From positions 1,640 through 65,639 of the forward strand of contig JAFXCN010000022.1 in the NCBI GenBank assembly GCA_017521465.1: 64,000 nt of DNA, given 5' to 3'. Shown piece after piece: positions 59,058-60,326 of this stretch (the stretch's first letter is position 1; every line of letters starts with the position of its first letter). The DNA is from Clostridia bacterium (GTDB lineage Bacteria > Bacillota > Clostridia > TANB77 > UBA1234). Under the pieces are notes generated by a model. It did no database searches. It worked only from the letters and a program-made list of their open reading frames with translations, and was not told the origin of the DNA. The position numbers and the translations under genes were made by a program.

Positions 59058-59089
59058 AACCGTGGCTTATGCTCCCATAAGCCACGGTT
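59058..59089. terminator. Bidirectional terminator between convergent genes
   Basis: AACCGTGGCTTATG, loop CTCC, CATAAGCCACGGTT. Confidence 0.75.
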
Positions 59090-60326
59090 CTTCATTTTTA
59101 TATGAAATCAAGAATTCTCTTGTTTCTCCATTCGTTGCATGAATTTTGTACAAACGTCTAATCTTACTTTTAAGAATACTCCATGCAACATTTAAAAATT
59201 CACTAGCAGCAACAGACTTTATTATTCCATTTTCTATATACTTTACTTCAGAATCAACTTGATCCAAACAAGTAAACACAACATGAATCTTTGCCGATAC
59301 ATTAAGATTTTTCAGGTCTTTTTGAATCTCGTGCACCAGCAAATCAAAGTCCAAATATCCAAATCTCAGCGCCCCTTGAAATTCATTAGGAATATTCGTA
59401 GGGTCATTAATGTTTTCATATGGTTTTTCTACAAGTTCATTTTTAAAAGGTCCCGCACCATGCCGAGTCAAGTAGCATCTACTCATGTAATAAATATCTA
59501 CTTGACCATAAAATTTGGTGCCTTTAAGAAAGGTCATTACATTTTTAATTCCTGTATTGGAGCTTGTAACATGTGGATAATATTCAACATTGTTTTGGTC
59601 AAGAAGCAAGCCTTGAGCTCCTTCAAACACCAAATTGTCAAATTTCATTGCCACAGCTAAATCTCCAATGGTTTCTACACTTTCAAGAAACTCCCGAATA
59701 TAAAACATAGACATCTCAATATTTTCAGGATATGTGAGAAGTTCCTGATATTCTTTTGGAAGTTCTTGAATTGTCAGGCCATATTCTTCTTTTAGACGCA
59801 TTGGAACATATTCATCTTGAATATATGTAAGACGTCTACGAAGAGTTTGCTCATCAAATAAGTCCTTTACTCTTAACCTAAACATATACCGACGATGTTT
59901 ATTTCTTTCAACAGTTTCATTAACGCCATAACCACAACTACCATGTCTGTTTTTTCCTCTCATAGCTTCAACAGCTTGATTGATAAAAACATCCCAGATT
60001 GTTGTAACACGGCAACCAGGATGAACCAAAACGGTTGGTTTGATACCAAACTGTTCTTCAAGTTCATTCTTTTCAAAAACAAATGCTACAGGATTAACGA
60101 TAAATTCTTTTGAAAGATATGTCGGAACACTTGAAAAAGTTCCTGCACCAAAATGTCTGAATGCATGTCGTTTTCCATCAGGCGTAACTACGGTGTGAGA
60201 TGCTTGGGCACCTCCATTGAACCGAATGTTAACCGTATTCTTCTGGTTGTTACAAAGAATATCGGTCATATGACCTTTTCCTTCATCTCCCCAAAGACTT
60301 CCGATGACGATTGAACAGTGTTGCAT
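59067..60326 (-). CDS. Divergent adenylosuccinate synthetase (PurA) family protein
   Basis: 419 aa from ATG 60326 (SD GGAGG). Conserved motifs: GSLWGDEGKG, GGAQASHT, FEGAQGLLLD, YPHVTSSNT, LTRHGAGPF. The substrate loops differ from PurA (see findings). Confidence 0.7.
   Translation of the reverse strand: MQHCSIVIGSLWGDEGKGHMTDILCNNQKNTVNIRFNGGAQASHTVVTPDGKRHAFRHFGAGTFSSVPTYLSKEFIVNPVAFVFEKNELEEQFGIKPTVLVHPGCRVTTIWDVFINQAVEAMRGKNRHGSCGYGVNETVERNKHRRYMFRLRVKDLFDEQTLRRRLTYIQDEYVPMRLKEEYGLTIQELPKEYQELLTYPENIEMSMFYIREFLESVETIGDLAVAMKFDNLVFEGAQGLLLDQNNVEYYPHVTSSNTGIKNVMTFLKGTKFYGQVDIYYMSRCYLTRHGAGPFKNELVEKPYENINDPTNIPNEFQGALRFGYLDFDLLVHEIQKDLKNLNVSAKIHVVFTCLDQVDSEVKYIENGIIKSVAASEFLNVAWSILKSKIRRLYKIHATNGETREFLISYKNEEPWLMGA

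Follow-up and report, generated by a model that had tools for sequence, protein, structure and literature searches.

The gene analyzed here lies on the minus strand, at 59067..60326, of a 64,000-nucleotide stretch of DNA (the window) from a Clostridia bacterium of the GTDB lineage TANB77; UBA1234 (assembly GCA_017521465.1, contig JAFXCN010000022.1, positions 1,640 to 65,639), and it encodes a 419-amino-acid ligase resembling adenylosuccinate synthetase (PurA). We consider it probable that this PurA-like gene belongs to a distinct and very large clade of the adenylosuccinate synthetase superfamily and is not a purine-pathway enzyme. It appears just as probable that the gene closes a mobile operon, in which a pseudokinase of the J-domain type is followed by a protein with a von Willebrand factor A (vWA) fold and a metal ion-dependent adhesion site (MIDAS) and then by the PurA-like gene itself. 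A literature search found no published description of this module, and genome announcements use only the label "PurA-like adenylosuccinate synthetase" (PMC9476963). The clade, which we name the vWA-coupled PurA-like clade, is apparently undescribed; it belongs to an unstudied gene module common to bacteria and large phages, and the window locus appears to be a clostridial variant, with extra partners, of this experimentally tractable module. A sequence-only reading of the same DNA had earlier proposed a PurA homolog with rewired substrate loops in a setting without purine genes, but it missed the main context of the gene, which is its position as the last member of the conserved pseudokinase, vWA and PurA-like operon.

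Separation of the PurA-like clade from PurA and PurZ

The open reading frame runs from an ATG at 60326 to the stop codon at 59067-59069; a longer frame with a GTG start reaches up to 60365, and the homologues of the protein begin at the ATG. The protein was identified by its Pfam match, its alignment to Escherichia coli PurA and its clade membership. Its match to PF00709 (Adenylsucc_synt) scored 159.6 bits (E 1.3e-46, profile positions 1-342 of 416), above the gathering cut-off of 27 bits that marks membership in the superfamily, whereas the canonical purA genes of related genomes score about 520 to 570 bits with the same profile. At the level of equivalogs, the protein reached about one third of the cut-offs for PurA (EC 6.3.4.4) and so attained neither, with 132.3 bits versus 395.55 for TIGR00184 and 135.9 bits versus 402 for NF002223. 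Against the PurZ model NF038379 it scored 48.3 bits, where the cut-off is 300. A phylogeny of 92 sequences, composed of 82 PurA-like relatives, 9 canonical PurA proteins from relatives and carrier genomes, and the PurZ of phage phiVC8, placed the PurA-like sequences in a single clade with a Shimodaira-Hasegawa-like approximate likelihood ratio test (SH-aLRT) support of 98 and canonical PurA in another (97), while PurZ occupied a long branch of its own. The deep placement of the PurA-like clade is provisional, since this was a quick tree under the LG+G4 model; clustering with housekeeping PurA, which the sequence-only reading had named as a refutation of its proposal, is not seen in this topology.

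Residue-by-residue comparison with the E. coli PurA structures 1ade and 1kjx, together with a 121-sequence alignment, bore out both of the motif observations made from the letters of the sequence, namely that the fold-defining motifs are present and that the substrate loops are altered. The motifs retained are the GDEGKG P-loop, GGxxxxHT with its catalytic histidine, FEGAQGLLLD, YPHVTSSNT and TRHGAGPF. The residues D14, K17, H44 and Q238 (E. coli D13, K16, H41 and Q224) are invariant in 30 sequences at 30 to 62% identity, the TRxG motif is invariant in the clade at 30% identity, and the C-terminal guanine motifs SxGPT and T-x-L-D are retained in most clade members. The protein thus shares with PurA the fold, the P-loop, the Asp13/His41 pair, Gln224, the FEGAQG and VTSSNT motifs and the C-terminal guanine motifs. 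The GTTGRGIGP of PurA, by contrast, has become GSCGYGVNE, the ligands of the inosine monophosphate (IMP) phosphate are altered, and the aspartate loop, in PurA the Thr300/Thr301/Arg303/Arg305 region, is reduced to NEFQGALRFGYLD. Where PurA reads GxTTGRxRRxGW, the window protein has the shorter NEFQGALRFGY, and the identical deletion occurs in all 82 clade members aligned. Across the clade, N38 is replaced by Gln, T128-T129 by Ser-Cys and TRVG by TRHG, and the aspartate loop is shortened to NxxNE[FYW]QGxxR; the resulting signature of Gln41, Ser130-Cys131, His289 and the short NExQG loop is complete in the window protein. The replacement of TKLD by TCLD, to which the sequence-only reading had also pointed as a change in the guanine-specificity motif, is present as described, but its lysine is of no diagnostic value: in the 121-sequence alignment the last motif in the canonical PurA of related Clostridia is NHVD or NHLD, so that the lysine is not universal even in true PurA.

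Five PurA-like homologues of 759 to 840 amino acids (P0123 to P0127) bear inteins, four of them with a LAGLIDADG domain; none of the five is encoded in the window. In the one such sequence that was read, P0123, the intein lies between the His and the Thr of the catalytic GHT motif, which fits a site under strong functional constraint. A search for fused vWA-PurA-like proteins turned up only these intein-bearing forms.

The PurZ proteins of Z-genome phages (NF038379; phiVC8 gp27) are among the closest known counterparts, as they too are phage-borne PurA-family paralogues with a changed substrate specificity. PurZ retains aspartate as a substrate, whereas the clade of the window protein has lost the aspartate site. 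The phiVC8 PurZ has 343 amino acids and adjoins DatZ, and profile scans with Pfam and NCBIfam gave no DatZ- or MazZ-like family match among the neighbors of the window gene. PHROG family phrog_1211 pools the PurA-like enzyme with PurZ, and phage homologues carry the PHROG/RefSeq label "2-aminooxy adenylosuccinate synthetase." A purA match attributed to an "Acinetobacter phage" was rejected as a phage gene, being a bacterial hisZ-purA locus.

The genome that contains the window is 1.4 Mb in size and 98% complete, with a G+C content of about 30%. No second PF00709 gene was found in it, nor was purM, nor purB (TIGR00928), which was matched in all of the control genomes. Because purB and purM were not found in a 98%-complete assembly, the PurA-like enzyme cannot be completing AMP synthesis; with no purB, adenylosuccinate would have nowhere to go in this host. 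The gene is the only PF00709 gene of its genome, which the sequence-only reading had taken as a mark of a housekeeping enzyme, yet it stands outside the housekeeping PurA clade with which such an enzyme should group. In the host genome canonical purA, purB and purM are all without a match and the only apt-like match is weak; by its gene content the organism looks like a purine auxotroph relying on salvage. A canonical purA, scoring 574 to 601 bits, is also present in each of the five free-living carriers of the PurA-like gene that were examined (Thalassospira, Acetobacter, Nocardia, Dactylosporangium and an Abditibacteriota isolate). The idea of a PurA-family enzyme working outside purine biosynthesis gains from these results together, with the catalytic core kept, the aspartate site gone and a separate purA in the carriers. 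The divergent type occurs sporadically among 40 relatives of the host, many of which lack both it and the canonical type while a few possess the two together. In three of these relatives (G002, G005 and G013) the PF00709 match falls in two pieces inside frames of 527 to 549 amino acids, which may represent a canonical purA with a large insertion or an intein.

The conserved module in bacteria and phages

The family search returned 4036 PurA-like matches, and the gene neighborhoods of 102 loci, 99 of which came from scans of genome and viral collections, were compared. A vWA gene of about 315 codons lies directly upstream of the PurA-like gene and on the same strand in 98 of the 102 loci, and in 68 loci the pseudokinase gene (about 350 codons) precedes the vWA gene. 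Contigs that encode homologues have five genes in common, the genes that flank the module vary from locus to locus and, unlike purA, the PurA-like gene never adjoins purine genes. Carriers include metagenome-assembled genomes of small-genome Clostridia, Alphaproteobacteria, Saprospiraceae, Saccharibacteria, Actinomycetota and Abditibacteriota as well as metagenomic viral contigs of up to 494 kb, and the closest Atlas clusters are mostly viral and unnamed. The module also occurs in cultured phages, namely Rhizobium phage RHph_Y65, Vibrio phage Va1 and mycobacteriophages of the Rizal/Bxz1 type, Rizal being classified as Bixzunavirus Bxz1. There are 201 mycobacteriophage records, and the 11 among them that were listed are all genomes of about 155 kb annotated as PurA-like.

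The vWA/MIDAS protein of the window (317 amino acids, 60551..61504, minus strand) begins MGGS and contains the MIDAS sequence DVTGS. Pfam and PDB searches gave no sequence match to it, and its fold was recognized only through the predicted structure. The AlphaFold 2 model has a predicted local distance difference test score (pLDDT) of 90, and Foldseek matched it to the integrin beta I-domain, C2a, the Ku80 vWA and the Rea1/MDN1 MIDAS with a probability of 1.0 and an E of 2e-5, with the NorD vWA also among the matches at a probability of 1.0. The family corresponds to PHROG phrog_2971, which is labeled function unknown. A profile search of 1.84 billion representatives retrieved 2488 clusters at 50% identity. 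The best 150 of these 2488 representatives share less than 50% identity with one another. DxTGS is present in 142 of them, and 141 begin Met-Gly; about four others were annotated with too early a start and contain Met-Gly internally, about five begin MA, MS or MH, and the residue at position 4 is in most cases Gly, Ser or Thr. All 30 vWA partners compared from diverse loci likewise have Gly2, and the copies in cultured phages begin MGGGRF, MGGATW and MGSGAW. The N-terminal 47 residues of the window protein are modeled, with a pLDDT of about 90, as packed helices and not as a free tail.

The gene at the head of the operon (61532..62602, minus strand) encodes a 356-amino-acid protein that its family profile identifies as having a kinase fold and a degenerate N-terminal J-like domain. 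The profile matches J-domains and kinase C-lobes in the PDB; among 23 family members, 9 hit Pfam DnaJ and 3 hit Pkinase. The Asp of the HRD motif is replaced by Gly or Ala and DFG by GGW, and since both are lost we regard the protein as a pseudokinase. The HPD motif of the J-like domain is kept outside the Clostridia and reads KPE in the clostridial clade of the window.

Several of the variable neighbors point to NAD metabolism. Clustering of neighboring genes placed a regulator of the NrtR type, with a Nudix domain and an NrtR winged helix, beside the module in nine loci from three phyla and NadE (NAD synthase) in four, and RHph_Y65 carries genes for an NMNAT/Nudix protein and a phosphoribosyltransferase 4 kb upstream of the module. 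None of the five module proteins had a match in PADLOC-DB 2.0 (2023 library).

Two known kinds of system resemble the module in part. TerY-P triads, recognized by comparative genomics, consist of a TerY vWA protein, a Ser/Thr kinase and a PP2C phosphatase, and such vWA and kinase triads have been proposed to act in conflict or stress. They likewise place a vWA/MIDAS gene beside a kinase-fold gene, sometimes with zinc ribbons; however, the window kinase lacks the catalytic Asp and DFG, a PurA-like enzyme stands in place of the PP2C, and no PP2C was found among the conserved neighbors of the module loci. In the vWA adaptor/ATPase pairs CbbO/CbbQ, NorD/NorQ and BchD/BchI, a MIDAS vWA protein is also dedicated to one enzyme. 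By analogy, the J-domain of the module would recruit Hsp70 in the position that a MoxR AAA+ protein holds in those pairs. The analogy is functional only, as the module has no AAA+ gene and the lineage of the window has lost the HPD motif of the J-domain.

The clostridial islet and its additional genes

In the window the module forms part of an islet whose left edge is a tRNA-Gly(TCC) gene (55546..55619, plus strand). Parts of the islet have a patchy G+C content of 42 to 53% against a background of about 30%, and an att-like flanking direct repeat of the tRNA-Gly end was not found. The sequence-only description of a foreign islet with vWA and J-domain genes holds, given the compositional difference, the vWA fold of the 317-amino-acid protein upstream and a stand-alone J-domain protein with an intact HPD. 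The latter (202 amino acids, 56241..56849, plus strand; Pfam DnaJ E 6e-6) is encoded at the edge of the islet and carries the sequence VHPDAGGD, and its homologue is found beside the module only in L008, the nearest relative of the window locus, at 95 to 100% DNA identity. It may replace the function that the J-like domain of the pseudokinase has lost.

Two further genes, encoding proteins of 530 and 88 amino acids, are paired beside the triad in the clostridial type of locus (L006 to L028 and L030). The 530-amino-acid protein (57187..58779, plus strand) comprises an N-terminal domain, an SH3/KOW-like barrel, a segment rich in Met, Gly and Asn, three zinc ribbons and a Lys/Pro tail. In its model (pLDDT 81), residues 232-293 match domain I of EF-P and HEX-1 with a Z score of 6.8, although this is a common fold. 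Residues from about 196 to 363 are homologous (E 6e-15 to 3e-5) to proteins of 185 to 286 amino acids encoded on viral contigs, and the homology covers the barrel and the Met-rich part and not the zinc ribbons. These viral proteins are encoded directly upstream of the vWA gene in nine contigs (L098 to L107 except L104) in which the pseudokinase is missing. The region shared with the viral contigs makes the barrel and Met-rich part of the 530-amino-acid protein a fourth recurrent component of the module. Its N-terminal 160 residues gave no significant structural match, the best Foldseek E being 0.018 and the VIA-align rows covering mainly residues 210-298, and no usable Atlas match was found for this part. 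The 88-amino-acid protein (58785..59051, plus strand) is a zinc-ribbon protein with weak matches to the Pfam DZR and NOB1 ribbons.

A 14-bp hairpin at 59058..59089, between the convergent PurA-like and 88-amino-acid genes, looks like a two-way terminator. On the other side of the PurA-like gene, the spacer that separates it from the vWA gene (60327..60550, minus strand) is 224 nucleotides long, compared with gaps of 60 to 110 nucleotides at the same place in other clostridial loci. It opens with a strong terminator-like hairpin at 60514-60539 and also includes a structured stretch of high G+C and the ribosome site GGAGG, and its predicted fold has a free energy of -80.4 kcal/mol (z -5.3 versus shuffles). 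Rfam matched nothing in 55000-64000 except the tRNA, and the spacer was unmatched. The spacer is 97% identical to that of L008, whereas the PurA-like gene beyond its first 70 or so nucleotides is only 74 to 80% identical, and the spacer could be a regulatory leader or merely a recombination patch. Just upstream of the pseudokinase gene, a promoter-like site at 62645..62673 on the minus strand (TTGACT-17-TATAAT) was recognized by consensus matching, with 11 of 12 consensus positions.

Across 55600-60560, DNA identity to L008 is mosaic: blocks a few hundred bases long vary in identity between 40% and 100%, a pattern that indicates recombination within the islet. In L008, at 5457-9464, the module lies beside TrbC/type IV secretion system pilin genes, which suggests that there it is carried on a conjugative element. 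Beyond the islet, in low-G+C DNA, the window encodes a 363-amino-acid protein of the nucleotidyltransferase fold (62733-63824, minus strand; NTP_transf_2, with weak matches to PADLOC PDC-S09); this gene is not conserved beside the module elsewhere.

Candidate reactions and their significance

To judge from its retained and altered residues, the PurA-like enzyme probably couples a purine nucleotide to a partner that is not aspartate. Residue conservation suggests that it would still bind GTP and a nucleotide of the 6-oxopurine type and that the gamma-phosphate would be moved onto the carbonyl oxygen by way of the Asp13/His41 pair, after which the activated carbon would be attacked by an amine. 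Free L-aspartate is not expected to be that amine, since the aspartate loop is missing throughout the clade. The strict adjacency of the two genes, along with a weak complex prediction, suggests that the enzyme acts with the vWA protein, and the J-domain or Met-rich partners may couple the complex to Hsp70, by analogy with the vWA adaptors that serve MoxR ATPases. In the complex prediction, the enzyme and the vWA protein were co-folded with our own paired alignments and scored 0.53, compared with 0.00 for the best control. Of 80 solved complexes 58 attained the mark used, as did 2 of 110 mismatched pairs, counts that hold only roughly here because our own alignments were used. The three runs agreed in at least 0% of contacts, and the pLDDT of the partners was at least 78. 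The prediction adds little beyond gene adjacency. As for a physiological role, the recurrence of NrtR, NadE and NMNAT genes nearby and the abundance of the module in large phages suggest the management of nucleotide or NAD pools during infection or stress rather than classical defense.

The reaction itself may take more than one form. It is possible, although we think it rather unlikely, that the enzyme acts on small molecules to restore adenine-nucleotide or NAD-related pools, with IMP or a hypoxanthine dinucleotide being aminated by ammonia or another small amine without PurB, which would be useful to phages and cells while adenylates or NAD are being destroyed. The NrtR, NadE and NMNAT/phosphoribosyltransferase genes that recur beside the module, its frequency in large lytic phages and a host without purA, purB and purM all accord with such a role, and the loss of the bulky aspartate site suits a smaller nucleophile. 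It would nevertheless leave the obligatory vWA and pseudokinase partners unexplained; in addition, free-living carriers already own PurA, close relatives of the host live without any PF00709 gene, and NAD genes do not adjoin the copy in the window. In another reading the vWA protein would itself be the substrate and the enzyme a protein-directed ligase, joining the purine nucleotide covalently through a C6-N bond to the N-terminal Gly amine exposed after removal of Met. The near-universal Met-Gly start of the vWA proteins described above, their invariant Gly2, the starts of the phage copies, the missing free-aspartate loop and the adjacency of the two genes in 98 of 102 loci are what such a ligase would lead one to expect. 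The conserved Gly2 could instead serve Met removal, stability or another partner; moreover, about 5 of the 150 vWA proteins begin MA, MS or MH, and the N-terminal helices are modeled as packed. We therefore give the ligase only a small chance of being correct, and the fuller scheme in which a GTP-driven C6 linkage to the vWA glycine is steered through Hsp70 by the pseudokinase/J-domain protein or the Met-rich partner is of similarly slender likelihood.

A role in antiphage defense or signaling, in which a triggered vWA/pseudokinase sensor would cause the PurA-like enzyme to make a second messenger or a toxic nucleotide, is improbable. The position of the islet beside a tRNA gene, its foreign composition, the sporadic distribution among relatives and the parallel with TerY-P triads would agree with it, but there was no PADLOC match, the conserved core is without an effector-like gene, and the module abounds in the genomes of lytic phages themselves. 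It is very improbable that the PurA fold has been kept only as an inactive scaffold, that is, as a nucleotide-binding or structural subunit. The partner kinase is already a pseudoenzyme and the substrate loops have been remodeled; against this, the P-loop, the catalytic Asp and His, Gln224 and TRxG are invariant at 30% identity, and inteins target the catalytic His motif. That the protein is a true housekeeping adenylosuccinate synthetase that has diverged, or an enzyme of the PurZ type serving 2-aminoadenine DNA, is scarcely credible and already contradicted. Its status as the sole PF00709 gene in the genome and the "2-aminooxy" label on its phage homologues speak for that assignment, but its scores fall far short of both the equivalog and the PurZ cut-offs, and the loss of the aspartate loop, the clade apart from both families, the missing purB, the lack of a DatZ- or MazZ-like neighbor match and the normal purA of the carriers all run contrary to it.

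A PurA-like enzyme that acts with its operon partners on a substrate other than aspartate remains the reading that we prefer, and several observations weigh against it or against parts of it. The substrates proposed are read out of sequence motifs. A few clade members have Val or Thr in place of the Cys that stands at T129, so this Cys is not an essential nucleophile. The complex score falls in a range where passes are often wrong: at 0.60 or below, there were only 7 of the 80 solved complexes alongside both of the passing mismatches. The pseudokinase of the window lacks HPD and the stand-alone J protein accompanies the module only in its closest relative, L008, so coupling to Hsp70 would not be universal. 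No NAD genes adjoin the module in the window. Finally, the patchy G+C content and the mosaic identity to L008 show that recombination has occurred, so that the zinc-ribbon pair may adjoin the module merely as baggage of the lineage.

To our knowledge, PurA chemistry has so far been represented by two enzymes, PurA and PurZ. The PurA-like proteins would form a third PurA-family clade, very large, tied to a vWA gene in a fixed operon and present in phages that are easily handled, and the substrates of its enzyme would define a new nucleotide reaction. For annotation, the labels "adenylosuccinate synthase" and "2-aminooxy adenylosuccinate synthetase" are misleading, as they can make purine auxotrophs appear to have purA. 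Linkage to the vWA glycine, if true, would be a new kind of N-terminal protein nucleotidylation in large phages and mobile islands. More broadly, the clade may reveal the means by which phages and mobile elements manipulate pools of adenylate or NAD or attach tags to proteins.

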